A DNA stretch of 63,953 bases, filler included, from Folioceros fuciformis (lineage: Eukaryota): NCBI GenBank assembly GCA_049999805.1. It is 11 parts of 11 records of this genome, joined end to end, with 100 filler letters (N's around TTAATTAATTAA, not from the genome) between each part and the next. Parts side by side here need not be neighbours in the genome. Positions count along the whole stretch, not along the records: positions 39,274 to 44,018 come from JBNGIO010001853.1; 10 more parts are not named here. One strand, written 5' to 3'. Below the pieces are notes generated by a model. The model saw only the letters and a program-made list of their open reading frames with translations. It made no database searches and was not told the DNA's origin. This document shows, one piece after another, positions 11,489 through 62,245 of this stretch. The translations under genes were made by a program, and so were the position numbers. Numbering within the stretch: position 1 is the first letter of the stretch; every line of letters begins with the position of its first letter.

Positions 11489-11588
11489 NNNNNNNNNNNN
11501 NNNNNNNNNNNNNNNNNNNNNNNNNNNNNNNNTTAATTAATTAANNNNNNNNNNNNNNNNNNNNNNNNNNNNNNNNNNNNNNNNNNNN
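11489..11588. other. Artificial contig spacer (also at 20293-20392, 24649-24748, 31142-31241, 37620-37719, 39174-39273, 44019-44118, 51699-51798, 54413-54512, 62146-62245)
   Basis: Identical 44N-TTAATTAATTAA-44N linker with stops in all six frames, present ten times. Confidence 0.99.
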
Positions 11589-18467: not shown

Positions 18468-19504
18468 GGGACTGTAACATGGGATTTCAGCGCAGGCAGG
18501 CTAGAGGTGATGAGCTCAAAGGTCTTCAACAATGAGCCGACTCGAAGGTCTTCGGCTGGAGGTGATAAGCCTGAAGGTCTTCAATGATGAGCTGACTACA
18601 TGTTGTATAGTGTAATCGAGATCGAATCACCCATTTGTTTGCTTCATACCCAGAATGCACTATAGGAACCCTCGAGATGCGCACGTTTTTTAATGGTGTG
18701 ACCATACATATCCTACAGGATATGCCTTGGGGCCCGTATCTCGGGGATGCAGTGTACCTGATTTCATGAAACTGCAAGAATGACACACCCTAATGTACAG
18801 ATGTCGTTGGTGCAGCTCCATGGGCCCCATCATGCAAAGCTAGGAGTGACACCTTCTTCCCAATGCCTAGCTCTGGGATCTTCACGATCTTTTTATCCCA
18901 TAACAGCATGTGTATAAAATCCTTTCAGGAGAGGAGTGGCTCACACGATTGCCGGGTGGTCCCGATCCTAACGTCATAATAAGGGTGGAGCACGAAAAGC
19001 TTATGCTAGGAGTTTATAAATTCCAACTACCCCGAAGGCTGTGGCTGGTACTTTCTTGCTTGCATATTCTACTAAGGCAATCTACGAAGATATGCTCTGA
19101 TACCATAATAAAATATAGTTCTACATAGATCAATTAAATGCATAATTACATAATTTATAAAATACATAAGATCAACAACATATGTTCTAATTATTGTTGT
19201 CATAAAACTGGAACTTAAAGTTCATGCTCACATGGTACCAAAGCAACCTACTTCACCAAGCCAACAGAATCCACAATGTGCTCCTTTCGACAATTGGACC
19301 TTGTTCCTGGTGGCCGCTAGGTTTGCTGAAGGGACACCCGAAGTTCCAACTTACCACAAAATTGTACTAATAGCATATCCCTTAGCTTGAACTTCTGGTT
19401 AAGTATATTTTTCTTAAAGTTAGCTTTAATGTTAAATAGTGTTTTAACTTATCTTAGAAAAAAAAGATGTAACTACCCTAAACACTAAACCCTAAACCCT
19501 ATCC

Positions 19505-20292: not shown

Positions 20293-20392
20293 NNNNNNNN
20301 NNNNNNNNNNNNNNNNNNNNNNNNNNNNNNNNNNNNTTAATTAATTAANNNNNNNNNNNNNNNNNNNNNNNNNNNNNNNNNNNNNNNNNNNN

Positions 20393-23300
20393 TGCTATTT
20401 AAGGGAGACAAGTGCATAATTGTTGACAGTGTGGATTCATATGCTGTACTTGCAGAAGGGTTTCCAGTGAATGATATATACCAACTGAGCCTTCAAGGTC
20501 GTAGCTTGCCAATGCTGAATGTTGTTGGTATTCCTGCGAATCTCACACCTAGTGAGACAGCTATGTTGTGGCATCTGCGCTGTGGACATGCACATGGTAG
20601 AAAATTATCAGCAATGTCGAATAGCTCTTTGTATGCTGATGGGATACCTGGTCAAGTGGGGGACTTAACGCTATGTGAGTCGTGCATCTATGGGAAACAT
20701 CATGAGGCTGCTTTTGACAAGACAGGTGCTCATCATGCCTCCACACCTCTAGAACTCGTGCATACGGATATCTGTGGCCCGATTTCAGTACCTTCCATTG
20801 GTGGTGGGTCGTATTTCCTCACTTTTATCCATGACTGCACTCGCTACTGCACTCTGTACATTCTGAAGTACAAGAGTGAAACCCTTCAGCACTTCAAAGA
20901 TTTCCTGCACATAGGTGAGCGGGAAACTGGTCATAGTTTGCGATGCCTCTGATCCGACAATGGTGGGGAGTACATCTCTGGTGAGTTTTAAGCATATTGT
21001 TGGGATCTTGGCATCACGAGGCAACTCACAGTCCCCTACACAGCTCATCTCAACGGCGTCTCAGAGAAGAAGAATCAGCTGTTGCAAGAAACTGCTCGGG
21101 CTTTGCTTAAGCAAGCTAGGCTTCCTAGGCGATATTGGGATGAGGCCATGAACACTGCTAATTATCTACTCAATAGGTTACCAACTCGAGTGTTACCTGG
21201 CAAGATGCCATTTGAGGCGTGGTGGGGACGAAAACCAGCAATACAGCACCTTCGCATTTTCGGTGCTCCAGCATATGCGTTTGTTCCAAAGCCTAAAAGG
21301 AAAACGAAGCTGCACGACAGGGCACACAAGTTAGTGTTCATAGGTTACACTGATGGCATCAAAGCTTATAAGCTTTATGACCCTGAGGCATGCATTGTCA
21401 ACCATGCGCGTAGTGTAGTTTTTGATGAACGACGAGTGATGCATTCCCTACTGCCTCCATTACGTCGGATAGAAGTAAAAATGTTCTACTTGAGACTGTT
21501 GAGGACCCTGACGAGGATGATCCAGTTGATGGGGCACCCATTCTGAGTCATGCTGATGTAGATCAGTTTGAATTTTCATATTTTGGTTAATCTGGCGAGG
21601 ATGATGATTGTCATGTTTTTTATCCTGCAGTCGAGGGTGATAGTATATCACCTGACACCTATACAGAAGAATTGGAAGCAGCATAGCCCATAGAGGAGGT
21701 GCCCATTGCTGATGTACCTGCTTCACAAGTGAGAAGCTCATATAATCTACGTGAAAGAAACAGGCCACGGAAGTAGCCTCCCCTCGAGATCGAAGACTAG
21801 AGGCCAGCTAGGGGGACTAAATTACATAAACAAAAGGTAGACAAGTCAAATGCTTGTAGTGTTGTTACCTTGGAAGTGCCTGCAGTTGAGGCACCTGCAC
21901 CAATACCAGCACCTACTGAGGTGGACAGTGAAGATGTATTTTCAATTGGGCATGCAACCCCGTCCACGTAGTTTGTCCAAGCTATGGTGGCATCCACCTT
22001 CGATCCTGATGAACCAATCTCTATGCAACAAGCATATTCAGGACCTGAGGCAAGACAGTGGAAGAAGGTAGTAGAAGATGAATATGCATCAGTAGTTAAA
22101 AATGGAACCTGAACATTGGAGGAGTTGCCAAAGGGTAGAAAACCTATCTCAAGTAAATGGGTCTTCAAGCGAAAAATGAAAGCTGATAGCAGCATTGAAC
22201 GTTACAAAGCCAAACTAGTGGCAAGAGGGTTTTCTCATATTCCTGGCATAGATTTTACTGACACATTCGCTCTAGTTGTCAAGTTCTCAACCCTTCGGAT
22301 GATTCTTGCCCTAGCTGCACATATGGACCTGGATTTAGAGCAAATGGACGTTAAGACCACTTTTTTACATGGTACTCTTGAAGAAGACTTGTACATGGTG
22401 CAACCTGAGGGCTACGTGAAGCTAGGGACAGAGCATCTAGTTTGTAAGCTAAAGAAAACCTTGTATGGACTTAAACAAAGCCCTAGAGCTTGGAATCAGC
22501 GGATAGATACTTATCTTAAATGGATGGGCTTCAAGCAGGGTGATGCTGACCCAGGACTGTATGTCATGACTGAGGACAAGAGTTTCCTGATACTTCTGTT
22601 CTACGTAGATGACTTAATTATGGCTGCAACCATAGGCAAAGGGAGCTTAATGCAGAAGGTTAAATCACTTCTCAAAAAGGAATTTGAGATGACAAAGTTA
22701 GGGGAACTTACATGGTGCCTTGGAATTGAGATTGCAACAGATAGGAAGGCAAGAAAACTTTCCATCTCGCAGCTTAAGTATGTCAGAGATTGCTTGAAGA
22801 AGTTTAACCTCGAGAATGCGAATGGATGTGCCACTCCGTTGGCCACAGGGCTGAAACTGATGAAGAGCCTGGTTCCCATGTCACCTGAAGAAGCTGAAGA
22901 GATGTCTAGGACACCATATCGGCATGCAGTAGGGACCCTAATCTATGTGTCAAACGTTACACGACCAGATATTGCCTTCCCTGTAAGCCTGGGGTCACAA
23001 TTCTTAGAAAATCCTCACCCTGAGCATTGGAGCCAAGTAAAAAGAACTTTCAGATACCTGAAATCCATCCCGACACATGGAATTACTTATACTGGGACAG
23101 AGGAGGAGCTTTTAACATTGGAGGGCTTCTGCGACTCAGACTGGGCGTCTGACTTGGACAGCAGGAAGTCCCTATCAGCCTTCGTGTTCTTGTTGGCAGG
23201 AGGTCTGGTCGCCTGGACAAGCAAGAGACAAGCAACTATATCAACTTCCAGCACGGAAGCTAAATACAAAGCACTTACAGTAGCTGCGAAAGAAGCAATT

Positions 23301-23561
23301 TGGATCAGGAGGAACCTATCTCATGTTGGGATGAAGCAACCAAGCGCCACCATTCTTCAGTGTGATAATCAGGGCGCCATTGCGCTATCAAAAAGCCCTA
23401 TTTTCCACTCTAAGGTGAAGCATATGGAAATACATCACCATTTCATAAGAGAAGTGGTGAGCAACGGTCAGATGTCAATCCAGTATATTCCTACAGCTGA
23501 GAACCCTGCAGATCTACTAACCAAAGCCCTGCCTAGAGAGCTGCACAACACATGCAAATAG
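20393..23561 (+). mobile_element. Ty1/Copia pol (pre-integrase, integrase, RT, RNase H) with several stops
   Basis: LWHLRCGH..CESC, LELVHTDICGP, SDNGGEY, KWVFKRK..YKAKLVARGF, QMDVKTTFLHG, LYGLKQSPRAW, YVDD, DSDWASD, CDNQGAIAL, ADLLTKAL. Confidence 0.96.
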
Positions 23562-24648: not shown

Positions 24649-24748
24649 NNNNNNNNNNNNNNNNNNNNNNNNNNNNNNNNNNNNNNNNNNNNTTAATTAA
24701 TTAANNNNNNNNNNNNNNNNNNNNNNNNNNNNNNNNNNNNNNNNNNNN

Positions 24749-25872
24749 ACATATTCAACCACCATCTTCCTTGATTTCTCCTCAAGTGTCATGTGTGTCA
24801 AGAATGCGGCCACTTCTGAGATGACGTCATCCTTGGATCTTCCTACAAGTAAAATGCAAGGAAGCTCTGAGGAGAAGTTTGGCACGGTTTGATGGAGGTT
24901 GATAAATACTGTTCTTTCTGGCTCAGTTTCCAATGACTGTGAGCTCCGCTGCTTGATCACTCCTTCCAGGTGCGCAACCTTTGTGAACAACGCATTCAGA
25001 TCATGAGACAGATGTTTGGATCTGCAATTGATGTTGTCGACTTTGTTGCGGAGGCGCTCCTCCTGAACCTCACGAATCCGCCAAAAATCGCACAGTGTTG
25101 CGTGCGTGTGACGGCGCTCCTCAGCAAGCAAATTGTGGACAGTCTTCAACGCCGGCTCTATCTGACCAGGCGTGGTTCCAGGTGCGGTCGCAAATGGACG
25201 CAGGTGTGCACTTCTTCCACAAGTATTGCAAGAACTCACAGCTTGGTAGGTGCAGGGTGACGGATGTCCGCTACACTGTGCGACGTCCGCTACACTGGCT
25301 CTTTGTGGATTGAAGGTGCGCCTTGAGCGGCCATTACGAGGCATTGCTTAGAATAGCAGTCCAGTCATTCACCTATCTTGTGCAGGCCTATGGACTGACT
25401 CCTGTGTGCAGGGATACCCGGTTATCATCACCTGTTTCCTAGTGTACATGAGAACGCGAAGAAAGACGTGTAGAAGATCTGGTGTTCCTACACAAGCTTG
25501 TTTCCTACAGTGGATTGAGTCTTACACAAACAGTGAACTAGTTGCATACCATGCTAGAAGTGTACTGGGCTGATCATACTGTGCAGGACAGAGACTGAGG
25601 TGACGATCTAGCAATTTGCAGACGCAGGTTCAACAGGGTGGCTCAATGTTCCTTGGCGCCAGGTACGCAAATGCTACGCGTAGTAGATATTGCCGATCTC
25701 CGCGAAGAAGGCTTCCGCCATCACGTCAAACCGGGTGAGTGAGAGTCTGAGTGCATGAATTGCAGCTCGAAAAATTTTCATGTGTCAGAGTCTTAATGCA
25801 GGACTCGGATTTACAGATCTCACACACACTAGGAGGCGACATGACGGAGTCCATTGACGGGCTCTGATACCA
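24749..25872 (-). mobile_element. 5' internal region of a reverse-transcribing element: tRNA-Met(i) PBS, leader and first ORF (25344 to contig end)
   Basis: TGGTATCAGAGC at 25872-25861. Downstream ORF of ~200 aa with a coiled-coil segment and no recognisable domain. Confidence 0.65.
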
Positions 25873-28670: not shown

Positions 28671-29979
28671 ATGAGTGATTGCAAACTTATTCGAAGATCA
28701 ACTATGAAGCTTTATAAAAAAAGGATTCAATCTTCTAACCATTGGAGAGTATTTTTGTTGTCCATTTCAATCCTAATTCTAGCTTTCCCCATCATCTTGC
28801 ATACTTTTAGCTATGAATTTCAAGCCAATTATAAAGCTTCTCCAATCTATCTTAGATATGTAGGTTTTTTTAGGCCATTATGGGCAACTCCTCCTAAACC
28901 TTTTGAATACATTGTTCATTTCTATGGAGAAGATTTGAGTCGTGAGCAACTATGTCTCTTACATAATTGGAAACCTCGTAGCAAACCTCGAAGGGTTTTT
29001 GATGCTATTTTGTTTGGTAATGAAGTGGACATTCTTGAGATAAGATTACGAGAACTTCAAGATGAAGTGGACAAGTATTTTCCTTTCATGGTTGAAATGT
29101 TTGGTTGTGGCATTCATGCGGCTACTTTAATTGATGATCACCTTCCACTTTTATTTCGAAAGCCTTTCCTTACTTAAGGTAACTAAACATTAATAGTCTA
29201 TGTCATGCAGATTTATAATTATGGAATCCCATACAACTTTTACAGGAGTAGCTAAAAACTTATTTTTTGTGGACAATGAGGAGCGATATTCATTTGCAAA
29301 GAACCACATTATACACAACTCTACTTTAGGACACAAGCTAGGAAAACATGATCATGCTTTTTACCAAGAAGATGAACAAAGGGATGCAATAAATAACTTA
29401 TTGAAAGCACATGGGATTAAAGATGGGGATCTGTTGATAATGTCAGATGTAGATGAAATTCCTAGCAAACATACAATCAATTTGCTAAAATGGTGTGACG
29501 AAATCCCGTCCATCACGCACTTACAATTGAAAAATTATTTATACTCATTTGAATTCCTAATAGATAATGGAAGTTGGAAATCGTCTGTGCATATTTTTCA
29601 ATCTGGAGTTACGTCATATGGCTCACGTGAAAGACGAACTGATGTAATATTAGCCGATGCTGGTTGGCATTGCAGTTTCTGTTTTAGATATATAGAGGAT
29701 ATTCAATTTAAAGTTAAAGCTTACAGTCATGCAGATAGATTGAAGTATCATCCCCATGTGCTTGATTTGGCTCACATACAACAACATGTTTGCAATGGAG
29801 TTAACTTATTCCATAGCTTTCCTCAAGAGTATACTTATAGAGATTTGATAGGTAAAACGGGTCCTCCGAATCCATCATACTCAGCAGTAAATTTGCCTTC
29901 TTGGGTTGTGAAGAACCCAGACAAATATAAATTCCTTCTACCCAAAAATTGCATTCGCAACCAGCCTTCAATCTTGTAG
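28671..29979 (+). CDS. Glycosyltransferase family 17 (beta-1,4-N-acetylglucosaminyltransferase III-like), 2 exons, intron 29075-29210
   Basis: N-terminal TM, RPLWATPPKPF, RRVFDAILFGNEVDILEIRL, MSDVDEIPS, DAGWHCSFCFR, AYSHADR, KYKFLLPKNC. The GT..CAG intron restores VDK|FIIMES. Start could instead be 28605. Confidence 0.92.
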
Positions 29980-31241
29980 TCAATGATTTTCATTGGCTTT
30001 CTACTCAAAATAATGAATTGTTATCATAAATGTACTTGTAGAAGATAGAATTAGCTATTTTTTAACATGGTCATCAATATTGAAAAGAGTAAGTTATTGA
30101 AATTTTGGAGAACCAATTATTTCAAACAAAGAACAAGTATGTTATGGCTTGTACATTTTAAGTTTCTTAATATTAAAGGTTACCATAGATTATTTTTCTA
30201 TTATTGAAAAAGAGATGGAAAGTTCTATCTACTCCAAAGATCAAGAAATAGCCGAAGCAAGGCCAAAGACGAAAAGGGATCCTAGCCTCTTCAAAGAGTA
30301 AAGGTAAAGATCAAATCTATCAAAAGAATTAGACAAATGTGTTCATCAATCCATGTATTATATGTTTATTATGTAATATAAATATTCAATTGATTTCAAT
30401 CACATTTATTTTTCAAGTAGATAATTAATTTATGAACCATTAATTACTTTGCTTGATATATGTGTTACTTCTATAATGCAATCTAAACTTTTGGGTATAA
30501 CATTTCAAGATAAGAACCTTTGGCTTTGTATGATATGCCATTCAAAATGATTTTGACACCACATTATGAACTCATGTCGTTATAATATGTCTATGTTTTT
30601 GGCATAATGTTTTAGCAAACAAAAGCATCCCTAAGATATTTGAATATATTACAAGTAAAAAATATATTTCGACAAAGAATTCTCGTTATGCAATAACTGT
30701 TTTGTTCTTAACATTGTATGGCATTTCAAGAAATAACCTTCTTTATTTGTGTTTCCCTCAAAAAGTGTACAGAAAATTAGAGGACAACTTTAAGTGGATA
30801 GATATTTAAGACGGGGACAAAAGAAGGTCTCAATATACTTCCATTTGTGCAAATCATTGGTTTTGTTTACCTATTTTTTATTACAATATAATATTAATAT
30901 AACTATAAAATATGATACTATAATCTGAATGAAGTTTATGAAGTTTTAAGTTAATTAAAATAAAGTATTATTGTATGTTCTATAAATAATTTTAAATGTA
31001 CACAAACTTACAAGGATTAATGACTGCTGATGAGATCTACCTAACCGAACCCAAACCCAGGTAATAATTCCGTGTGGCAAGCCAAATGTGGCAAATGTTG
31101 CAGGCGTCTTCTCCACCTTCACCTTCTCCGTCCAGATGGACNNNNNNNNNNNNNNNNNNNNNNNNNNNNNNNNNNNNNNNNNNNNTTAATTAATTAANNN
31201 NNNNNNNNNNNNNNNNNNNNNNNNNNNNNNNNNNNNNNNNN

Positions 31242-31288
31242 AGAACAGATACTACACTTGATCTTAGCCAAAAGGCCGAGAAAGGTAT
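31242..31288 (-). ncRNA. U2: U2 spliceosomal snRNA, 5' 47 nt (cut by contig end)
   Basis: Reverse complement reads ATACCTTTCTCGGCCTTTTGGCTAAGATCAAGTGTAGTATCTGTTCT, the plant U2 5' end with the GTAGTA branch-site pairing sequence. Confidence 0.96.
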
Positions 31289-31944: not shown

Positions 31945-34902
31945 TCAAGAGGTAAGGTGTGGCAAGTACAATTCGCGATTCACTTTAAAACAAAGCTGTT
32001 CCAAATTCTGCCTGCCTTCAATATTTTGATGCTTCTTGTAACCAACCAGAAAACTATGCACAAGTCCATCCATGTCTGTCCACCAGCTCTGGCCTGGGTG
32101 CTTCCACGCCCGAACTGTTATCCTCCTCGCCTGCAACTCCTGTGCCTGCACCCACAGCGCCGCACTGCTGTATATGTTGGACATCAACACATATGCCGTA
32201 GCATTTTTCTTGTCTAGCTTCACTGCTTCATGGAAAGCATGGCGTCCTAGCTCCACGTTGCTCCACTTCAGACAAGCACCCAACAGGGTGTGCCAAACTG
32301 CCGCATCAGGGGGCGCAGTCATTCTCTTCACTAAAGCTAGAGCCTCATCCAGTTGTCCAGCACGACCCAGGAGACTCACCATGCATGTGAGGTGATCCGT
32401 CGTTGGGGTGATGCCATACCGTCCACTCATAGCCTCAAAGTACTCGTGCCCCTTGTTCACTAGACCTGTATGACTGCAAACTGTTAGTACGGCAATGAAG
32501 GTGATGCCGTCTGGTTTTATGTCGTCTTCTGTCATTTTAAGAAACAAATCGAAGACCTCTTCACTGTCTCCTTGACGGCTGTATCCTCCAATCAGCGCAT
32601 TCCACGGGACAATGTCGCGCTTGGGCATTGTCCCGAACACCTCATGTGCATCAACCATGCTACCGCACTTTGCGTACATGTTGATCAAACTGCCGGTTAC
32701 AAGCATGTCAGTCTGAAGCCCTTGCTGTTTAATTTGTACATGAAGCTGGCTTCCCAGGTGCAAAGCTGCCACACTTGCACATGCTTGAAGGAGACACACA
32801 AACGTCACTGCATTGGGTGCAACAATCCCTTCCTCTTGCATGGCCCTGTAAAGACGGAGGGCGTCGTGCCCCATTCCCTGCTTGGAATATCCTGCTATCA
32901 TGGCACTCCAGGTGACCACATTCTTCTCACCAAGCTTGCCAAACACAGCCTGGGCATCCTCCAGGCTGCCGCACTCTGCATACATGTGTATCAGACTGTT
33001 GGCTACAAAGACATCAGCTTCAAGATTTTGCTTCCTGATTAGTGCATGAAGCTGTCTGCCCATGTACAGAGCCTGGGTGCCCACACTTGCACATGCCTGC
33101 AGGAGAGACACGATTGTCACAGAATCAGGCGCTGCTATGCCCTCTTGTTGCATAGACCTGTAAAGATCAAGGGCTTCCTGCCCCATGCCCTGCTGGGAGT
33201 ATCCTGCTATCATGGCACTCCATGTCATAGCATCCCTGTGAGGAAGTCCATTGAAGATGCCTCGGGCAGCCTCCGGGCTGCCACACTTCACGTACATGCT
33301 TATCAAACTGCTGGCTACGAACACGTCAGCTTGGAGCCCTCGTTCTGTTATCTGTCTGTGAAGCTGCTTCCCCTTCTCAAAAGCAGGCGTGCCCACACTT
33401 GCACATGCCTGCAGGAGGCACACAAATGTCACAGCATTTGGTGCAACAAAACCTTGTTCTTGCATAGCCGCATAGAGACGAAGGGCTTCCTGCCCCATGC
33501 CCTGCTGGGAATATCCTGCTATCATTGCACTCCACGTCACCACATCTTTCTGAGACAGTCCATCAAACACTCGTCGAGCATCATCCAGGCTGCCACACTT
33601 TGCATACATGTTTACCAGGCTCCCACCTACAAGCACTTCTGCCTGAAGTCCCCGTTCTCTAATCTCTGCATGAAGCTGCATCCCCTCCTCCAATGCCGAG
33701 TTGCCCAGACTTGCACATGCCTGCAAGAGGCACACAAACGTCACAGAAATCGGTGTAAAATTGCTGCCTTCTTGCATCACCCGGTAAAGCTGCAGGGCTT
33801 CCAGCCCCATACTCTGCTGGGCGTATCCTGCAATCATGGCATTCCATGTCACCACGTTTTTGTGCTCAAGTTCATCAAACACCTCCCGTGCAGTTTCTAG
33901 GCTGCCACACTTTGCATACATATTAACCAGGCTGCCACCTACCACCACGTCTGCCTGAAATCCTCGTTCTTTGATGTGCGTATGAAGCTGCTTCCCTTTC
34001 TCCAAAGCTGGTGCGCCCACACTTGCACACGCCTGCAGGAGGCACACAAATGTGACGGAATTGGGCGCAACGAGGCCTTCTTCTTGCATAGCCTTGTAAA
34101 GATGAAGGGCTTCCTGCCCCTTCCCCTGCTTGGAATATCCTGCTATCATGGCACTCCATGTAACCACATTCTTGTGAGGAAGCCGGTCGAACACTCTTTG
34201 AGCGTCGTCCAAGCTGCCGCACTTTGCATACATGTCCACCAAGCAACTACAAACAAACGCATCGCGCTCAACGCCACTGGCCAAGAGATCAGCATGCACC
34301 TGCTGCCCAGATTTGAGGTCTGCCCCCCTGGCACAAGCCTGCAAGGCAGCCACAAACACATGGCCATCGGGCTTCACACGTGACCCGAGCATCAGATGAT
34401 ACAATTGCATGGCCTGCTTCTCTTGTCCATGCTTGACAAGCGCAGAGATTATAGAGGACCACATGAAGGCATCCGGTTGAGGAACCACAGTAAACAAATC
34501 CAAGGCTTCTTGCAACTTGGCATGAGAAGCATACATTCGCAGAATGTGGTTGCACAGGAACGTGTCCGACTCATATCCCCTCTTGACGCTGAGAGCATGA
34601 ACTCGGCGACCCAGAGCCAGATCCTTTTTACTCATACATTCTCTCAGGACCTTGTAGAAAAGAGATCCGTCAAGCTGACAGCCAGTGCGCACCAGGCCTC
34701 CCAGGGCCTCGACGGCCTGAGTGAGGTGGCCAAGCTGACATAGCTTGCTCACGGTCTCACCCGTGACGCCTCCCCTTTCATATCCTGCAGCCCCACGGTC
34801 ACTGCGCTTGCTCCACAGCCGCACATCCACAGAATCCAGTTGCACATCCACCGACGCTATCATGCATCCATTGTTGAGCCAGAGGACATCCCTGGACTCC
34901 AT
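31945..34902 (-). CDS. PLS-class pentatricopeptide repeat protein with E/E+ extension, no DYW domain (organellar RNA editing specificity factor)
   Basis: Intronless 985-aa ORF with repeated SLVNMYAKCGSL..A..VF / VVTWSAMIAGY / PN.VTFVCLLQACAS triplets, an E domain (WHTLLGAC..AYVLMSNIY) and PGQSWWTD..VHSFLVG. Confidence 0.96.
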   Translation of the reverse strand: MESRDVLWLNNGCMIASVDVQLDSVDVRLWSKRSDRGAAGYERGGVTGETVSKLCQLGHLTQAVEALGGLVRTGCQLDGSLFYKVLRECMSKKDLALGRRVHALSVKRGYESDTFLCNHILRMYASHAKLQEALDLFTVVPQPDAFMWSSIISALVKHGQEKQAMQLYHLMLGSRVKPDGHVFVAALQACARGADLKSGQQVHADLLASGVERDAFVCSCLVDMYAKCGSLDDAQRVFDRLPHKNVVTWSAMIAGYSKQGKGQEALHLYKAMQEEGLVAPNSVTFVCLLQACASVGAPALEKGKQLHTHIKERGFQADVVVGGSLVNMYAKCGSLETAREVFDELEHKNVVTWNAMIAGYAQQSMGLEALQLYRVMQEGSNFTPISVTFVCLLQACASLGNSALEEGMQLHAEIRERGLQAEVLVGGSLVNMYAKCGSLDDARRVFDGLSQKDVVTWSAMIAGYSQQGMGQEALRLYAAMQEQGFVAPNAVTFVCLLQACASVGTPAFEKGKQLHRQITERGLQADVFVASSLISMYVKCGSPEAARGIFNGLPHRDAMTWSAMIAGYSQQGMGQEALDLYRSMQQEGIAAPDSVTIVSLLQACASVGTQALYMGRQLHALIRKQNLEADVFVANSLIHMYAECGSLEDAQAVFGKLGEKNVVTWSAMIAGYSKQGMGHDALRLYRAMQEEGIVAPNAVTFVCLLQACASVAALHLGSQLHVQIKQQGLQTDMLVTGSLINMYAKCGSMVDAHEVFGTMPKRDIVPWNALIGGYSRQGDSEEVFDLFLKMTEDDIKPDGITFIAVLTVCSHTGLVNKGHEYFEAMSGRYGITPTTDHLTCMVSLLGRAGQLDEALALVKRMTAPPDAAVWHTLLGACLKWSNVELGRHAFHEAVKLDKKNATAYVLMSNIYSSAALWVQAQELQARRITVRAWKHPGQSWWTDMDGLVHSFLVGYKKHQNIEGRQNLEQLCFKVNRELYLPHLTS

Positions 34903-37719
34903 ACAGCTCTTATTCCTGTGCCCACTGTCCCACCAAAGCGTAGGCTACAGGACACACCGTGGCTCGTCGGCAGCCGGACATCCTCGTAGTGAGGCAGAAT
35001 TCCAGCACCTCGCGGCTTCGTTTGTTTGCTACGAGTTGCGTCCTGGAAGGCAGATGAGCGGCGGGAGGTCTTCCCAGACACCAAGTTGCTGGGTCCGCCA
35101 AAACTGATCGCTCTCGCCCTGATGGCCATCCCCTGACCCAATTCCCACCCTCTACCCAGCCATGGCTGATAGGAGCAAAGTTTGAGCTTGGCCCCACTGT
35201 GTCACGCGTTTCAATGAATCGGGTAACGGGGTGGTGGACCTAGCCACGACCCGCCTAGCCTAGGATGGGACGAAATTCCCAGGAAAAGGTCCTGCTGATC
35301 GTGGAGTTATGGAATGGACGTCATCCACACTCAAATTCGTGTGACATCGTACAAAGCATGTGCTTCACCATATCTATCCGGAACATTGGTACATACATGC
35401 CGCGCAAACGTGAGACGACAGAGCTACTTTTTGTGCAAACGTTGGGTCTGTAACCCAAGATTGCACAGGAAAACAGTATCGTTGCCCTGAAGTACATCGC
35501 ACATTCCACCTGAAAGAACGTTGTTGGGAACAGCAGCACAAGGAGAAGACCACGGCATTAGATTTAGTAGCTTGCAAACGGTGTGATACCTATTAAAGTA
35601 CTGCATTTGGAGCACCCTCTTAGAGTGTGGCAAATGCAAGCCTCCTGCCATGGCTTTTCCTTGTGCACGGGCTTGATTGTGGCTCCATACATACAGTCGA
35701 GCCGGGGCCCCGTCATGGGACACACATCACGTCATCCCAATCTAGCGCTCCAACCGACAGGCCATGGCGAAGCCGGCAGGACTGAGGAGGCAGCCTGCAG
35801 CAGGTGGTGGAGAAGGCCTGGTGGTGTACATCCCATGAGATCATCTTCCAATGCGAGGCAGCCGCCCTGAATGAGACAGGGGAAGAAGCATGACAGGGAC
35901 GTGCGTGGTGCCAAGTCTCACATCAGGCTCAATGAAAGTTAGGGTACCGTTGCTTTCATGCTCCAACTCCATCGCACTCGCCACTCACCCTCTGTCGCCC
36001 TGGAGACACCGAGCGATGATCCCATTTTGGAGTTGTGCATTGCATGACAGCAGTGGCGTGTGTCCAACATGGTCCCTCCAAGTCCGTACCAGTCCCCGGG
36101 CAAGCTGCTGCCCCCTTCCGCCAGTCCACCGTCGGCTCAGACTGCCCCTCAAACCATATACATACATATAACCCATATGGCCGGGGTACGTTGAGCAGCC
36201 AGAGTGGGAACCAGAAGTAGAAGGAAGCATCGAATTCCGCGCGAATCGACAGAGCTTCTGAGTCCTTGTACGCACGCGCAGGGGAGTGGGCCAGAGTGCA
36301 TGCCAGGACCAGGGTCAGGGTCAGGGCGAGGGTCAGGCCCTGGCTATGGTTGTGGATGTGGCCGTGGCCCTGGTACTCCCAACTCCCCCAGCTCCATCCC
36401 GTTGGGGATGGCGGGCGCGTACGGTGGCGCAGCGGCGAGGCGTCACGTCCGGAGGGCCGGCCCCGCAGCGCGGTGCAGTCATGATCGATTCCCTTTCTCT
36501 CCTCTTGCACTGATAGCCGGGGCCCGGCGCAACAGAGGTGATATGCCCTTTGCCTTTTCCGCGGCAAGGGGATCATGCCTCGAACTGCCTGTAAGCGCTC
36601 CTTCCCCTTCCCCACTCTCCCCCCTCTGTTGCTGATGCCGAGGATGCCACCGCCCCCGCGCACAGCCTGCCCGTCACACGCAACAAAGCTCGGGTGCGTG
36701 TAGACACCTGATTGGTGGCCTGGGAAGCGTGAGTCAGATCCGGGGCGGGCCGCTCTCTGGCACAGCAGGCCCGAGTGCAGCTCATCTGCTGCAGCACCAG
36801 CGGATACAGCAGCAGCCAGCGCGTCCCCTCCACGTCCACTGCGCAGGCACTCTCTGTTGCGTTGTGTTGTCTTGTGTTGTGTTGTCTTGTGTTGTTGCAG
36901 TGTGTGGGAGGAGTCTGCAAAACCCTCCCCCATACACATACATGATACGACGCCGGCGAGATACGGCTACGACCTGGCTGCCAGGCAGCCGCACGTATGT
37001 ACATACAAGGCACTGGATACATCCTCCAGATCAAGACCAGGGGCAGAGGCAGGGGCCGCGGCAGCGACCGGGTCCAGTAATGGCGAGCCGATCAGGTGAA
37101 TCTTCCGTAGCCCCCCGCAGCCACGGCCAGTGGCTGCTGCTGCGGATGCGACTGCAGCAGCTCTAGCTCATCAGAGGGCTGGCCCAGCTCGGGGTCGTTG
37201 GACTGGAGGGAAAAGGACGCCATGCGAATTGGCCGCGAAAAAACTAAGGGCACCGAGAAAGAGAAAAAATGAAAAAGCAGTGGCAGTTCCGGTCCGAACG
37301 GCAGCGGAGCGTCCTCACCTGACGCCGTCTCTTTCGCCGAGCCCGTCAGGTCAGGCCCAGCACGTCCGCATACATATGTATACTACTACACTCTTGTATG
37401 CACATGGACCATAAAATAAAAAGCAGGCGAGGCGAGGCTGTGTGTCACACCGACACGCCCCACCCTGCCGGTAACGAAAGGCAGCATCTGCTAACTGCCT
37501 CTACAAAACCGGGGGGTGAGCGGTAGGTATTGCGGTTGGGACTTGAAATGGCCGGCCCGCCATGGCAAGCTCCATGCGCCATGCTCCATGCCCCATGCCC
37601 ATTCCACCCGCCCCCATGCNNNNNNNNNNNNNNNNNNNNNNNNNNNNNNNNNNNNNNNNNNNNTTAATTAATTAANNNNNNNNNNNNNNNNNNNNNNNNN
37701 NNNNNNNNNNNNNNNNNNN

Positions 37720-39173: not shown

Positions 39174-39273
39174 NNNNNNNNNNNNNNNNNNNNNNNNNNN
39201 NNNNNNNNNNNNNNNNNTTAATTAATTAANNNNNNNNNNNNNNNNNNNNNNNNNNNNNNNNNNNNNNNNNNNN

Positions 39274-40031
39274 TATATATATATATTAATCATAACCTTA
39301 ATCACTCTTACCACTAATTAGTACAAACTCAATAAGCTGGATTAGCACTAATTAATATCAACATTAATCATGCTTAACACCCTCCATCAGTCTCCACTCT
39401 CTCGTCTCCCTGGCGCCACCTTCCGCTCGGTACTGGCACGCTCCGCGTTGCCCCTGGTCCGCTCAGTAGCCACCGCACTTAGGCGCTGCCTGCACCCCGT
39501 TCACTTGTCTCCTCCTCGGATCCCGTCCACCACTTCCGCTCCTGCCGTGGTTGCGCTCCACTTCAAAATTACCCCTGGACTCCTCGAGTCCCTACTTGGA
39601 GTTTCTAGTTGCTCCCGCCGCTTCGATTCCACTATCCCGACGGGGTTCCGCTACCGGTTTTCCTCTCCACGATGGCGGTCCGCCTTCCTCAACCATTGCT
39701 GAGTCACAACTACCCCACTTTCCGGCCTAAGTCCACAGCTCTCTTCTCCCAGCGGGTTGCTCCTTATTCTCTAACTATAGAGGGGGGGGGGGGAGGGTCC
39801 TTATATAGGCTTCCTAGAGTTTATTCAAACATCGAGACCCAAGGACCAAGTAGCACCTGCCCCGATTTGATCCGTGGACCAATTATTGGTCTATCTTAAA
39901 ACTTCAAGACCTAAGGAGGTCTTGAACAAAAATACCCCGGCCTATTCCTAACTTAAGTCGCATTCGTATCCATCTCACCAAAAAACCAAAAAACCACCAA
40001 GTCTCGCCCTTGGCGAGGGGGTTTCTAAACA
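39274..40031 (-). mobile_element. LTR fragment inserted at the end of the methyltransferase-bearing element
   Basis: Minus strand starts TGTTTAGAAACC at 40031, contains a TATA-like CCTATATAAGG, and shows an abrupt compositional change against the flanking decayed ORF. Confidence 0.55.
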
Positions 40032-40071
40032 TTTTTTCGTCTACACCATCCTTACTTGCTTCACATAAACT

Positions 40072-41100
40072 TCAATTTGCTATTCTTGCATTCAAAATAA
40101 TTTTCCATTTCCGCTTCCATTCCTGATAAACTTTTATTGACATCATAAGCCTCTTAATGGTATTCAAATCCATAGCTTGCCCAAGCTTTTTATTCCTATG
40201 TTCGGATGTTATTCCCTCCATATAAGTGTTATTAGTATCAAAACCCATTGCCCTTTCTCTCTCCATGCATGACGGAACATCCCACATATTCTTTCTCGTA
40301 TCAAATATCATATCTGGTCCCTCTCCCTTAAATGAATTAGCCTTTTCAAAGTTGACAAATGTAAGAAACACCCTCATAAGCTCACCCTTTCTGTTTGCAC
40401 AATAAAAGCACTATCTATTATCGGAAGTCACTCGCCTACTTACTTACCCTTCATCTAAAATCTGACCAACTGTAAACTCCTCATTCCTCTGCCACTGATC
40501 TGCATGCCTTTGTAACAAATGCTTAAGCATCATGTTATTCTAGAAACATCGAAGTTTATGAGCTTTTGATCCAAATTGCATCATATCCAACTTTATAGGT
40601 TTCTCTAAATAATACTTGATTTCCCCAAAATCCTACCTCAGTAGAACCTTCCTATCCATTTTTGAGTCCACATTTTTAATTAAATACCCATATTTTATCT
40701 TTTGATAGTTTTGTATAAATTTTAAAACCCTTACTAGCTAATAAAATAACATAAATCTATAATCCAACAACTCCTTTCCTTTTCCTGACATTGAGTGACC
40801 CTGACCCTCCCAACCAATGATTATAAGATCAACTTCTTCTACCATCCTAAACTATGTTGACCCAACAAGCCTAACATCTTGTGGCTATGTAGAAAACAAT
40901 TGCTTCACAGCTTCCACTCTCAACTACTTTGGATACTTCTTACACAACTTAAACAATCTAGCCTTTGCAATTGCGTGACAAACTTCACCTAGATCACAAT
41001 AAATGTAGCGCTTAGCTACATTTATTGTGATCCAATCTACAAACCATATGCAATTCCAGCAATTAACTCAACCACGACCAATCCATATACAGATGAACTC
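40072..41100 (-). pseudogene. Retrotransposon-encoded C5 cytosine DNA methyltransferase domain, decayed
   Basis: Manual translation in motif order: I VVVELIAGIAYGL; II RYIYCD; III PQDVRLV; IV VDLIIIGWEGQGHSMSGKG..LLDYR; VI YGYLIKNV; VIII QFGSKAHKLRCF*NN; IX ERERAMGF; X LGQAMDLN. No introns, 8 stops, 1 frameshift. Confidence 0.85.
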
Positions 41101-41172
41101 AAAGTCACGAGTTTATTATAAATAGGTTCCAATTTATAGACTATCTGCTTTGTACAAGGTTGAACCTTATCA

Positions 41173-42720
41173 TCATACATCCACACCTCCTCTTTGCAAA
41201 AACAAAGCTTTTGTCCCTAGAATGACGTCAAAATTTCCACACTTAACAATCAAACACGTCATTCCAACTATAGTATCCTTCTCTATTCCAGGTTGAAAAC
41301 ACAACTGTAACTTTTCCTTTGTCTCCCCCATCACTGCCTCCAGACCCCCATTGGCCATTCGGATCTTCCATTTGGTCTCTTGAATATCCCCTCTTCTCTA
41401 CCCCATCGCATACTGGTCATACCAAAATGTATCAGAGGAGGTTGGGCTCCTGAATCAAACAATACTTTTGCTGGTGCAAAACCATCTATCAAGAAGTCTT
41501 GTTTGCTATTATCCAAAATGCGATTTCTGGCTTAACTTTCGCTTTGTGTTCATAACTTCTCTATTCATTTTCTACACAGAATGCCAGAGTTGTGTTCAAC
41601 GCATCACTTTCTTTAGGTAGAGATGCAGCCACTTCTTGTAAAAGTTCTTAGATTTTCACCATAGCTACTCCTGCTTTAATGCACAACTCCAACATGTTTC
41701 TAACACAAAACACCAGATCTCCTTGCAAGGCTTGTACCTTTCTACTTCCTTGCCTTTCTAACACCTCTTTTGTCCTTTCCTTTACCTTCATATTAAAGTT
41801 ATTCATATCCACGTCCATAACTTCAAATAACTATGGGTACTTCCATCCTGACACAGATGTCTCCACATGATCCTTGCCTTTGTCTCCATATCTCGTATTG
41901 ACTCGCCTTTACATGACCTCCACATTCACCACCATCTCAAAGCCCACCTCACACACAAATGCATCCATTTGCAGTTCTTTGTAGGCCTCTTTCTTCTCAA
42001 TCTTTCCTTTCTTCGTTTCCATTGTTTTAACCTCTTTGATCTTAACTCCATTTATCTAAATATTGGCAGCCTTTAGCCTATCTATCTTAGCTTTCAAATC
42101 CAATATATGCAGTTCTAGCAACTTGTGAGACATTTCCACACGACTATTAGTCGGCTCTCCACGTATCCCCACCAACCGACTACTTCCAGCTCTCTACACC
42201 TACCTAACATTCTTAACATTCTGTCCTTTTTGGCCAAACTTAGTACGTCTAAGGGACGGATGCTTCTACCAACAAATTCTTTCCAAGTGTCCTTTCTTCC
42301 TACAATGGTTACAACTTACATCCTTCTTAACCATGCACTCCATCATCACGTGCATGCTGCTCCCACATAATAATTATTTTATCCCCTTGTCTGACTCCAC
42401 GTTCATGACCAGTTTCATATATTTGTTATCCACACTAGAGGTATTTACTTGTTGTTGCCAACCACATGTCTCCATCTGGGCAAATAATTATGTATGGGTA
42501 CCACTACTGAGAATGAAACTCCTTTTCTATCAACCCCAACTTTTCTACCCATTCCCTTCAACGATGCTCTTACTTGTTCATGCTTTTCTGCAATTGGAAA
42601 ACCTTGGTCCAAAGTATATGTTTTTCCATACAACAATGTTAGCTCCCTAAAAACATCCTCCCTTATATCTTCATCCAAATTATAAATGTATTTGAAACAC
42701 ACTTTCATCTCATTATGCAT
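41173..42720 (-). mobile_element. Gag (CCHC knuckle) and aspartic protease of the same Gypsy-type element, decayed
   Basis: CNHCRKKGHLERIC (~42315-42270), AKVLFDSGAQP (~41470), MANGG..FDVILG. All on the same strand, directly upstream of the methyltransferase. Confidence 0.82.
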
Positions 42721-43459
42721 CCCTTATCCGTCACCAGTAAAACATAAGTGCTATGTCATCAGGTCATGAAGAATCCAATGTTTTATAATGTACTTCTCAA
42801 CTAGTATCCATTGAGGGGTGCGGCCAATCAATGTCATTGATGGAGCTCTCATAGACCAAAGCATGAAGAGTTCATATATTATAATATACTTCTCACCTAT
42901 TATCTATTAATGGCCACACCTGATACATTCAATTCCTCAAGACTTAGATTCAGAGGGAAAAGCCATGTTTTCAAGCTGAAGCCTATGGAGTATAAACCGA
43001 TGTAGAAGATGTATGCAATAAGCACCCAAGAAGGAAGGAAGCAATAAGCAAAGTGAAGCTCCAGTCACAAGCTGAAAATTGTTATGTCTTTCTTAATGCA
43101 AAGTAGAGTGTACACGAACTTTCGCGTAAGCATGACTCATAGTGAAAGTACTTGATTGCTTTTGAAGGGCATGACTCTCATTGATTAGGCAACAATACTC
43201 TTTTGAGAGTACTCGGTTCTTGAATACATGATTATGGCAACTAAGAGGGAGTAAATGAAATGATGGTTTAAATATAGTTTTATAATAATTATATTTGAAG
43301 TAACTATTTTAGCATGTATAAATAATTTTGGTGTGATAGTAAATAACTAATTTTCCTTTGTTTTTGCTTGCTTTCTTAGAGCGCGAGCATTTCTTTGCAT
43401 TAAACAAGAGCTAAGCACTCCACAATCTAAACGCTCAACTTTGATTGCACTCAACGTTC

Positions 43460-43990
43460 AAGACACAAGATTGGGTTGTAAGCAACCTACCATCCACTAA
43501 GGACTTCTATAACACTCAATTGTTATGACACAACATTGGGTTTTATGTAACCTACCATCCACTAACAACTCCTACAACACTCAACTATCATGACACAACA
43601 TTGGGCTTTCGGCAGCCTACCATCCACTAAAGACTCCTAGAGCACTCCATTGTCATCACACAACATTGGGCTTTAAGGTAAGTAGTCTACTATCTACATA
43701 CGACTCATAAACTACCTCCTCAAGATGCTCTCTTTATTCAAGAATACTTCCAATAAAGTCTTGTGCCATAACACTTGGTTCCAAGTAGCTTACCAATCAC
43801 TAACAACTTGCAATTCAAGGATACTTCCTATTAAGTTTGGTGATACAACATTGGGTTCTAAGTAGCTGGCTAACCACTAAGAAATCGCAAACTACCTCTT
43901 CAAGATGCTGCTCTTTATTCAAGAATACTTACTTATAGTTTGGTTCTTTATTTAAGAATACTTATTTATAGGTTGTTTTTTTATTCAAGA
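43460..43990. repeat. Degenerate ~59-bp tandem repeats grading into ttattcaagaatactt repeats
   Basis: Recurring cacaacattgggtt...ctaccatccactaa...acactcaa units. Confidence 0.75.
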
Positions 43991-44118
43991 ATATTTACTT
44001 ATAGTCTGGTTCTTTATGNNNNNNNNNNNNNNNNNNNNNNNNNNNNNNNNNNNNNNNNNNNNTTAATTAATTAANNNNNNNNNNNNNNNNNNNNNNNNNN
44101 NNNNNNNNNNNNNNNNNN

Positions 44119-51428: not shown

Positions 51429-52294
51429 ATCGGGTCAAGCTCCAACGATAACGAGGCGACGTCCAATTCATGTCCCCGGCACACCACTGCCGCAACGCTA
51501 GTCTTTGAAGACGAGCAACCAAATCCGACATCGCAGATCGGACCCAATGCAACGCTGGCGCGCACAACCGGACCAGGAGGCTCAACTAGGCACAAGAGTA
51601 TCGCCCGGGCAGCGCCAGATATTTCGATTTGATTCAATTCTATTCGATGCGGGCTTTCCCAATAGGAGGTCGGGCAGATATGGAGTTAGCCTGTCACGNN
51701 NNNNNNNNNNNNNNNNNNNNNNNNNNNNNNNNNNNNNNNNNNTTAATTAATTAANNNNNNNNNNNNNNNNNNNNNNNNNNNNNNNNNNNNNNNNNNNNGC
51801 TCAGATGTGGGACGATGAAAGTGCAGGGTAGGAGATGTAGGTGGAACAACTAATTGAAATGGCTTCATCGTCCAGTCGCAAAATGCGACGGTGGCGCATA
51901 GCAGCGTGGACTTGAAGTCGCAAGTCTGTATGTACCAGCCCGCCGTCGTTGCTGCAGGTTCATGGGGCTCTGGAGGATTCAGGAGGACGCTACGAAGAGT
52001 GAAGAGTTTGCGTGATGTGATGCTCTGTCTGACCTACATTCGGTACGAGGCACTCCCAAAGATCTAGGACTGTCCGTCCTACTTCTCCTACAAGTCCTCT
52101 ACTGATGTTATCGCCCGAGATTTCCTACTTGTCGAGGTGAAGGAGTGTTCCAGGCACTTCCCCGAGTTTCATTCCTACTGGAAGTTATGAACCCTCTCCA
52201 CAATGCAAAAACATCAAAACAATGATATGAGGGAGCTGGATCTTGGTCCAGGAGCTAAAGCAATCCTCGCCACGGGATTTTCTGTCTTAGCCTC

Positions 52295-53690: not shown

Positions 53691-54512
53691 AGATTATGAA
53701 AACGTTCACTTGGGTAATGTTCTACTTCGCCTTTTGTATGCAGGCTTATTATAGACTTTTGAACCATTTATAAAGGTGATGACTCGACCTTTTGTCCAAA
53801 ACAAATGAATGAGAAATCTATCTACCCCATAACCAAGGGGTGCGCAATGCAACGAACTACGCCAAGCTAGGGTAACTAGCAGTGTAATCAAGAAACTCAA
53901 AATTACCAAAACTACTAATAAGTGGTGTCATGGCTTAGAAAGTCTGTTAGAGTTTTGCATTTGTGTGAACTTGTTGTGCAGATCGGTACCACATGAGTTG
54001 ATCACTCACGGCAAATATGTGCGTAGAAAGGGTAAATCCCTTGCGTTTTGACTAAAGAGACAGTTAATGGATGAAAAGTTCTCACACAAGAACGGTTGGA
54101 GAGTACGGTTTTTGGTGGTTAACTTTGTGCACAGTTTATACTGGTTTAGGAATGTCCATCCAGGTAGTTGGTAATGGAATAGTGTAAGTATATAGTGATC
54201 AAGAAAGAATGATTGGGCATTCTTTTGATAGTTCGCTTAGAAAGCTTGATGAAAAGGGAATGCACGAAGTGCTACGGACCATTCGATTTCAATTGAGAAG
54301 CTTGTAGTGAATTGAACAATTGAATCAAAGCTTTTGTGTTACAAATTTGCGTTTGCATGTATCATTGCATTTGAAAACGTGGCAATGGTGTGACGTAGAG
54401 CACCGTCGGACTNNNNNNNNNNNNNNNNNNNNNNNNNNNNNNNNNNNNNNNNNNNNTTAATTAATTAANNNNNNNNNNNNNNNNNNNNNNNNNNNNNNNN
54501 NNNNNNNNNNNN

Positions 54513-62039: not shown

Positions 62040-62245
62040 GACGCCGGGGTGTTGCAATGGCGGCCTGTTGTGTCGTTGTTGCTTCGTCGTGTTTGGCAGT
62101 TCCGAGGATTGGCCGTCGGGTGAGGTCTGCGGTTGTAGGTAGGGTNNNNNNNNNNNNNNNNNNNNNNNNNNNNNNNNNNNNNNNNNNNNTTAATTAATTA
62201 ANNNNNNNNNNNNNNNNNNNNNNNNNNNNNNNNNNNNNNNNNNNN

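Follow-up and report, generated by a model that had tools for sequence, protein, structure and literature searches.

The stretch of DNA analyzed here, hereafter the window, comprises 63,953 nucleotides of the Folioceros fuciformis assembly GCA_049999805.1, in which 11 contigs of 1.5–11.5 kb are joined by spacers of the form N44-TTAATTAATTAA-N44, and adjacency across a spacer has no genomic meaning. On the minus strand of one of these, the 4,745-bp contig JBNGIO010001853.1 (39274–44018), lies an intronless series of coding remnants in which a gag-type CCHC zinc knuckle, an aspartic protease and the motifs of a DNA methyltransferase acting on cytosine at position 5 (C5-MTase) follow one another in that order. 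All of these had been proposed in an earlier reading of the same DNA (the original prediction), and all were found where it had placed them. In light of its relatives, the region 39997–42720 is best seen as a decayed and truncated copy of a Ty3/gypsy-type retrotransposon with a DNMT3-like methyltransferase in its polyprotein (Gypsy-DNMT3), dead, multi-copy and most probably situated in a land-plant genome, a reading to which we would give a probability of roughly 0.75.

The 5' part of gag is represented by a stop-free open reading frame (ORF) of 91 amino acids (42445–42720; like all features of the element, on the minus strand), which opens at 42720 and matches no Pfam family at E ≤ 10. A gag/nucleocapsid frame of 308 codons with five TAG and three TAA stops (41564–42487) comes next, delineated by the sparseness of its stops and by the knuckle within it rather than by homology. 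The knuckle, CNHCRKKGHLERIC (42272–42313), conforms to CX2CX4HX4C by motif reading and scores 18.8 bits (E 0.0017) against Pfam zf-CCHC, below the cut-off of 20.8. Beyond it, both motifs and tblastn point to a retropepsin-like protease remnant (41176–41531) split across two frames, with the D-S-G motif of VLFDSGAQP (41439–41465) in one and the ILG motif of FDVILG (41215–41232) in the other. This remnant has no Pfam match; among 17 related polyproteins used as tblastn queries on the contig, three show homology to it, namely P0005 (E 1e-6), P0023 (2e-4) and P0161 (3e-3). Residues 1021–1042 of P0005 align to 41474–41409 and its residues 1048–1111 to 41391–41200, in differing frames.

The methyltransferase remnant opens with motif I, VVELIAGIAYGL (41040–41075), which was compared by eye with the VVELFSGL and LLDLFSGIG of relatives in an alignment of 14 of them, and continues one frame away with motifs II–X (40075–41043). 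The motif names follow general knowledge of the C5-MTase family. The original prediction had placed motifs II–X in a single frame with eight stops, and exactly eight (seven TAG and one TAA) are counted in its 323 codons; the sole ORF that a scan recovers within the domain is the last 101 amino acids (40072–40377). In the 14-relative alignment, motifs I (from the adjacent frame), IV, VI, VIII, IX and X stand in canonical order, and the signatures GW(E/P)CQGHS, DAAxFGSxAHRxRxYWTN, EPxAxERExAMGF and LGxAMD are common to the window and its clade. Motif IV reads GWEGQG (40798–40815), with glycine in place of the relatives' catalytic cysteine; its codon is GGT, and the predicted distance of one base from WECQG is arithmetically correct. 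At this site GWECQG is found in five and GWPCQG in four of the 14 aligned relatives. Glutamate before the catalytic cysteine (GWECQG) was seen in P0003, P0166, P0023, P0156 and P0009, including intact polyproteins of 2,100–2,300 amino acids. In motif VI, the ENV of relatives has become KNV, with lysine for glutamate. The cysteine is kept in 14/14 relatives and ENV in 11/14, with EMV or EHx in the other three, and stops of the window copy fall at a nearly invariant leucine and at a tryptophan kept by 13 of the 14. Past the TGA at which the frame terminates (40072–40074), tblastn finds a brief stretch of further polyprotein homology (39997–40074) with no reverse transcriptase (RT) after it: alignments of P0003 and P0155 reach 39997, and that of P0009 reaches 39919.

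When the 323-residue read-through was searched exhaustively with phmmer against 1.84 billion representative proteins, 550 matches were obtained with E ≤ 1e-3 (of which 283 have E ≤ 1e-10 and 25 have E ≤ 1e-30), mostly long Ty3/gypsy polyproteins, the best with E 4.3e-46, 174 bits and 33% identity. The comparison with the Pfam DNA_methylase profile (PF00145), proposed as a check, gave only a weak result for the copy itself (14.7 bits, E 0.021 on the 323 residues; cut-off 22), and the relatives pass: five of five phmmer matches scanned lie above the threshold, P0001 (63.7 bits), P0003 (46.1) and P0005 (45.5) among them. The lack of a profile hit had been named as grounds for abandoning the prediction; this is very nearly what Pfam returns, yet the phmmer matches lie far beyond chance. 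Decayed copies are evidently missed by Pfam alone. A word-indexed search of proteins near the domain in length yielded 373 candidates, none at E ≤ 0.01, and also missed P0001, which lies within the length range, so that its blank carries no weight; metagenomes scanned for near kin of the window MTase domain gave 41 pattern matches, none confirmed; and a protein atlas queried with P0001 gave generic DNA_methylase clusters only, one of them labelled Streptophyta with no finer taxa.

The architecture of the relatives indicates to what kind of element such a domain belongs. In P0003 (2,188 amino acids), Pfam recognizes zf-CCHC at 530, Asp_protease at 796–888, DNA_methylase at 978–1226, RVT_1 at 1421–1575, RNase H at 1638–1766 and integrase at 1895–2061. 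Probes for the six domains cut from this protein were used to survey 156 proteins (150 listed matches and six cluster mates). In 20 of them protease or CCHC precedes the DNA methyltransferase (DNMT) domain or RT follows it (type A); in 81, RT or RNase H precedes it or integrase follows it (type B); DNMT stands alone in 54, and one shows none of the domains. A FastTree phylogeny of the window and the 144 domains that are 220 residues or longer places the window with a support of 99 in a set of 34 rows, in which there are 19 type A, 14 DNMT-only and no type B members, the remaining 110 rows comprising 79 of type B and none of type A. In a quick IQ-TREE run on 56 rows chosen from that tree (the window, 30 rows from its set and 25 from the other), the two types again separate, at an SH-aLRT of 97, and the window is grouped with GAQ93235 of Klebsormidium nitens among 15 rows (support 88), which bears out the proposed relation to Klebsormidium retrotransposon DNMTs. 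Membership of the window row on the type A side appears safe, its exact place inside the clade being unsure. The DNMT region of the contig is matched by all 17 of the type A proteins used in tblastn (E 2e-48 to 3e-23), and the order knuckle–protease–DNMT on one strand, without introns, is that of the type A polyproteins. The methyltransferase can thus be assigned to the retrotransposon, as had been predicted: it clusters with domains lodged between protease and RT in intact gypsy polyproteins such as P0003. The original prediction had also allowed for chance nesting of a host pseudogene; the relatives' methyltransferase is contiguous with protease and RT, and the position of the window within their clade, together with the same domain order, therefore rules this out.

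As to the type of methyltransferase, a profile of the clade (12 short members and the window row) matches, among solved structures, DNMT3A (E 2.7e-22), DNMT3C (1e-20) and DNMT3B (2e-19) ahead of DRM (1.5e-12) and M.HhaI (2.4e-10), and not one chain of DNMT1, MET1 or CMT has E ≤ 0.01. The AlphaFold model of P0001, the nearest relative (pLDDT 86.6, pTM 0.88), retrieves DNMT3A/B/C at all of the top 49 ranks of a fold search (TM 0.66/0.74). By sequence profile and predicted fold, the clade is DNMT3-like. The window sequence by itself matches the best solved DNMT3 (DNMT3B) at 17.6 bits (E 0.021), and on such scores its kinship with the transposon clade (174 bits) is much the closer of the two.

As had been predicted, this copy is dead, and it is also truncated. 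Its catalytic cysteine and the glutamate of ENV are replaced, and its coding path (40075–42723) holds 16 stops in 922 codons. Homology supports at least two frameshifts, the first within the protease (tblastn) and the second where motif I gives way to motif II (alignment), and frame maps suggest two more. The 16 stops comprise 12 TAG, four TAA and no TGA, whereas TAG, TAA and TGA should stand at 38/34/28% under a model of single mutation steps applied to these codons; deamination at methylated CAG is one possible contributor to the TAG excess. RT had been described as not visible, and none of the 17 relatives finds an RT match on the contig; indeed no query matches downstream of 39919, though several carry RT, RNase H and integrase. 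The truncation had been attributed in part to the contig end: the contig does end at 39274, and it must be added that the neighbouring sequences are uninformative on linkage, the window being made of 11 separate contigs. It had also been put down to a long terminal repeat; by summed depth the sequence that follows the copy (39274–39990) is another repeat, and no pair of terminal repeats was found.

The depth of related contigs bears on both limits of the copy as well. Summed, it falls from 128.9 to 9.09 between the bins 42613–42771 and 42772–42930, just upstream of the gag ORF, and thus the repeated family ends nearby; the depths together suggest that the repeated part ends near 42650–42770 on one side and near 39990–40070 on the other. 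The 5' flank (42772–44018) is AT-rich and largely single-copy, with a depth of 9.09 in run X1 and 9.25 in run X2 over the bins 42772–43089 and 43408–43725, an observed/expected CpG ratio of 0.32, tandem repeats of 65, 77 and 33 bp and no evidence of a long terminal repeat (LTR). The 3' flank (39274–39990), which runs to the contig end and lies outside the element's coding region, is an unrelated repeat of 50.5% GC with a summed depth of 38–75 as against 9 for unique sequence, and has no similarity to the upstream flank. Its AT-rich terminal part (39274–39432) reaches a summed depth of 56,231 in X1, where unique sequence has about 9; it is simple or satellite-like DNA of very high copy number. 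No tRNA-iMet-type primer-binding site, by the motif as generally known, occurs on the element contig within two mismatches, and no tRNA or RNA-family match was found there.

Runs X1 and X2, which derive from one sample, contain the element contig (0.94 and 0.90 of its sampled words), and in them the element is far from solitary; no RNA run is listed among those that contain it. At 80% identity or more, 358 related contig pieces are found along the element contig in X1 and 277 in X2; the X1 pieces include 82 at ≥99% identity, 67 at 95–99%, 52 at 90–95% and 157 below 90%. The DNMT bins have a summed depth of 31–181 against 9.09 for the unique flank (3–20x), and variant contigs, along with one deletion variant, span the DNMT positions. 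The DNMT part is therefore that of a repeat family in which both old and fairly young copies occur. A third run of the sample, X3, resembles a bisulfite- or enzyme-converted library: its differences along 39353–44017 are G>A at 309 places, C>T at 103 and A>G at 7. When these differences are compared contig by contig with minus-strand CHH cytosines, six of eight pieces agree (28/28, 36/36, 21/22, 15/16, 69/73 and 95/97), and 32 of the 32 listed G>A places are CHH. CG and CHG cytosines would thus have stayed unconverted, and these contig summaries suggest that the dead element is methylated at CG and CHG, like ordinary silenced plant transposons.

Whose genome this is can be approached through the other contigs of the window. 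The contig at 31242–37619 carries an intact, intronless gene for a PLS-class pentatricopeptide repeat (PPR) protein of 985 amino acids (31945–34902, minus strand; Pfam E_motif 50.1 bits), and PLS/E-class PPR proteins mark land plants. Every named organism among its best 120 matches is a land plant, with Diphasiastrum, Cryptomeria, Adiantum, Ceratopteris, Calypogeia, Typha and Amborella as the named best matches; two Logan proteins reach 50–54% identity. An F-box/kelch ORF has a single match, in Diphasiastrum, at 30% identity. On these matches, those of the PPR protein above all, the assembly is that of a land plant, one whose own proteome is absent from the database searched. The more specific claim that the host is a bryophyte is unsupported: the best named PPR matches are to the lycophyte Diphasiastrum complanatum (44–49%) as against 40–43% for the liverwort Calypogeia. 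A further intronless ORF, of the plant-type GT17 family (353 bits; 29200–29979, plus strand), lies on an AT-rich contig of 38.8% GC, so the element contig is not alone in its low GC. We consider it quite likely that the element, too, resides in the plant genome.

Several observations weigh against the reading of the locus as a resident Gypsy-DNMT3 copy. Pfam reports no family at E ≤ 1 on three 910-residue read-throughs, and since it does not call the domain in the window copy, the methyltransferase assignment rests on homology to relatives, to none of which the identity exceeds 35%. The RT, RNase H and integrase parts of the 17 type A queries match nothing on the contig in tblastn, there is no LTR, and the flanks have no direct-repeat pair; the designation gypsy is therefore drawn from the relatives. 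In the trees, which hold no host DNMT3, DRM, MET1 or CMT references, the window row has a long branch (1.53–1.58) and an odd composition. The picture of methylation comes from contig summaries rather than reads. When the isolated domain of a related Klebsormidium nitens element was assayed in yeast, no methylation was seen, an outcome described as inconclusive by the authors in the accessible part of their paper (PMC5890265). The element contig is without a host gene, and the contigs of the window are unlinked. Finally, for 11 of the 30 relatives looked up the organism is named, and it is an alga every time (Closterium in nine cases, Klebsormidium in one and Cymbomonas in one); residence in a land plant is therefore probable rather than proven.

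These last points bring up the alternative that survives best, namely that the contig is a real Gypsy-DNMT3 contig whose source was a green alga, streptophyte or other, that lived in or on the plant and was co-assembled with it. Besides the names of the relatives, the lack of a plant gene beside the element and the lack of linkage between contigs, it can draw on the GC content of the element contig, 36–38% as compared with 50–55% in the gene-bearing contigs. Nevertheless, the GT17 contig is equally AT-rich, and CpG depletion is alike in the transposon-rich contigs of the window (0.46–0.56 vs 0.42). With the best identity to any algal or other relative at 33–35%, the source is none of the known algae; hundreds of diverged pieces show the family to be both abundant and old in the sample; and the depth of the element locus is similar across three libraries (8.7–12 in X1 and X2, 7–19.5 in X3). 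None of these points is decisive, and we regard an algal source as unlikely but worth keeping in view.

Far less probable is a pseudogene of a host DNMT3 or other host methyltransferase that has come to lie by chance beside an unrelated gag-protease fragment. DNMT3 genes are kept in non-angiosperm land plants, as the accessible text of PMC12344493 indicates, and the window domain is as dead as a pseudogene would be. There is also a host methyltransferase in the window, in the form of exon pieces with GGPPCQ and ENVRNF on the contig at 37720–39173 (minus strand; Pfam DNA_methylase weak, 20.1 bits). These pieces, which we take to be MET1/DNMT1-like, of the maintenance type, belong to another class and have no linkage to the element, and their juxtaposition with it is therefore coincidental and potentially misleading. 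Against a host origin of the element's domain stand its 174 bits to transposon-borne relatives as compared with 17.6 bits (E 0.021) to the best solved DNMT3, the clade-specific motifs GWECQGHS, DAAxFGSxAHRxRxYWTN and EPxAxERExAMGF that it shares, the same protease–DNMT adjacency in members of its clade, its lack of introns and the multi-copy nature of the DNMT part.

A variant genetic code with TAG and TAA as sense codons, which would make the domain less broken, is just as improbable: the stop composition given above, the DNMT frame with TAG 7 (8 and 8 off-frame), TGA 0 (11 and 9) and TAA 1 (10 and 14), and the termination of that frame at TGA all lean its way, but 16 stops are a small sample, relatives have Q/L (position 40), a nearly invariant L (53), E/D/H (102) and a W present in 13/14 (168) opposite the TAGs, the frameshift within the protease and that separating motif I from motif II persist, the cysteine and the ENV glutamate are replaced under any code, homology continues beyond the TGA, and the host ORFs of the window are normal in the standard code. 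The reading of TAG and TAA as sense codons was rejected, the TAGs facing differing residues in relatives so that no single reading fits.

Retaining the Gypsy-DNMT3 reading, one may picture the working element as follows. Intact relatives have a single polyprotein of the order gag(CCHC)–protease–DNMT3-like MTase–RT–RNase H–integrase, in which the methyltransferase is made together with the replication enzymes and would be either freed or carried along as the protease processes Pol. By homology it is an AdoMet-dependent C5-MTase of the de novo (DNMT3) type, and intact elements may make it in active form along with Pol. From the literature, its role might be to mark newly made DNA of the element or the DNA around it. 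The window copy itself is incapable of this, given its substituted cysteine and glutamate, 16 stops, at least two frameshifts and the loss of RT, RNase H, integrase and LTRs; it is one of many diverged copies, apparently methylated at CG and CHG like a silenced plant transposon.

The closest described system is KnitGypsy-Dnmt3 of Klebsormidium nitens, in which intronless Dnmt3-related domains lie within gypsy Pol (de Mendoza et al. 2018, PMC5890265, in its accessible portion). It shares with the window's clade the intronless DNMT3-like domain of normal motif order inside a gypsy-type polyprotein, and its copies carry CHG and CHH methylation in K. nitens according to the same portion of that paper; the window copy appears methylated at CG and CHG. 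The window copy differs in being in a land-plant assembly, dead, and without RT, RNase H, integrase and repeats. K. nitens GAQ93235, with its knuckle at 290–320 and its DNMT at 830–1147, shares both the window's clade and its 15-row subgroup; from its species and architecture it is presumably one of the published KnitGypsy-Dnmt3 copies. It differs from the window domain in its identity of about 29% and in motif IV, which reads FPCQG in place of the window's GWE-x-QG. The passages of the de Mendoza et al. paper accessible to us also contain the suggestion by its authors that such elements might methylate their own new cDNA; the similar idea in the original prediction, that the element may have methylated its cDNA, is speculative.

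Polyproteins of Closterium species (CAI7855100.1, GJP34393.1; Zygnematophyceae) share the clade and the domain order: P0156 reads knuckle–protease–DNMT–RT–RNase H, and its motif IV GWECQG corresponds to an ancestor-like reading of the window's. They differ in their identity of 29–36% and in forming a subgroup of their own apart from the window. In the literature searched, no paper describing these unannotated Closterium polyproteins was found. The proteins of the order RT–RNase H–DNMT–integrase(–PHD), the 81/156 of type B with Cymbomonas tetramitiformis KAK3250090.1 as an example, likewise have a DNMT in gypsy Pol, and their domain forms the sister clade, with E values to the window down to 3.5e-41; in contrast to type A, however, their DNMT follows RNase H and not protease, and the clades split at supports of 97–99. 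In two of them, P0002 and P0008, a PHD finger follows the integrase, and the sole named type B member among those looked up is that of Cymbomonas tetramitiformis. Elements with a DNMT4-like module have been described from Cymbomonas in the available text of a 2026 preprint (10.64898/2026.05.21.726589), and are not equated here with the type B proteins.

More distant parallels are offered by the dinoflagellate SymbioDIRS-Dnmt3 and SymbioLINE-Dnmt elements, which also carry a cytosine methyltransferase on a retrotransposon, the DIRS ones being DNMT3-like. The SymbioDIRS-Dnmt3 domains methylate CG de novo in yeast. These elements are of the DIRS and LINE classes and, per their authors, represent independent captures; they are set apart here on that description, as given in the accessible part of PMC5890265. 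The cellular DNMT3A/3B/3C are the best profile and fold matches of the clade, with which they share a normal motif order, unlike DRM; the clade's domain differs in being embedded in Pol and in having no PWWP/ADD region.

The kind of element is therefore known, and the window copy is probably the first from a land plant. Two later texts, as far as their accessible parts go, label the host of Gypsy-DNMT3 'streptophytes', and in the literature searched it is reported only for K. nitens. In that literature, most subscription journals and supplements aside, no land-plant report of a C5-MTase-bearing retrotransposon was found. Morozov et al. 2019 (PMC6338049) state, in the part of their opinion paper at hand, that DNA-methylase-encoding transposons are absent from land plants, and build an argument about antiviral defence on their loss; a resident land-plant copy, even a dead one, would contradict that claim of absence. 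With Closterium, a member of land plants' algal sister group, in the same clade, it would also place the element type's beginnings before land plants arose or across that transition, and it would show where to look for intact copies with which the enzyme's use to the element could be tested.

A bolder version of this scenario holds that the family was recently active in the land plant, that its intact copies encode a working enzyme, and that the type was inherited from a streptophyte-algal ancestor and not lost. Hints in this direction come from the 67 of 358 X1 pieces that are 95–99% identical to the window copy and from the span of the clade across Klebsormidiophyceae and Zygnematophyceae; we put it forward tentatively and, on the whole, doubt it. 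Were it true, land plants would host retrotransposons that write 5-methylcytosine themselves. More generally, transposon-borne cytosine methyltransferases invert the usual picture of a host methylating its transposons. With 550 matches in two architectures, mostly from environmental assemblies, the type is much commoner than has been published.

With regard to the rest of the window, the spacers lie at 11489–11588, 20293–20392, 24649–24748, 31142–31241, 37620–37719, 39174–39273, 44019–44118, 51699–51798, 54413–54512 and 62146–62245. None of the other contigs shares sequence with the element contig by blastn or tblastx within the window. Runs X4–X6, under the same species label, contain almost none of the element contig's sampled words. 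An uninterrupted Copia-type RT/RNase H ORF of 481 amino acids (22116–23561, plus strand; Pfam RVT_2 229.8 bits) is present on another contig, and exact matches to the generally known tRNA-iMet primer-binding motif occur at 19094–19105 and 25861–25872 (both minus strand), likewise on contigs other than that of the element; ordinary LTR retrotransposons are therefore common in the assembly.

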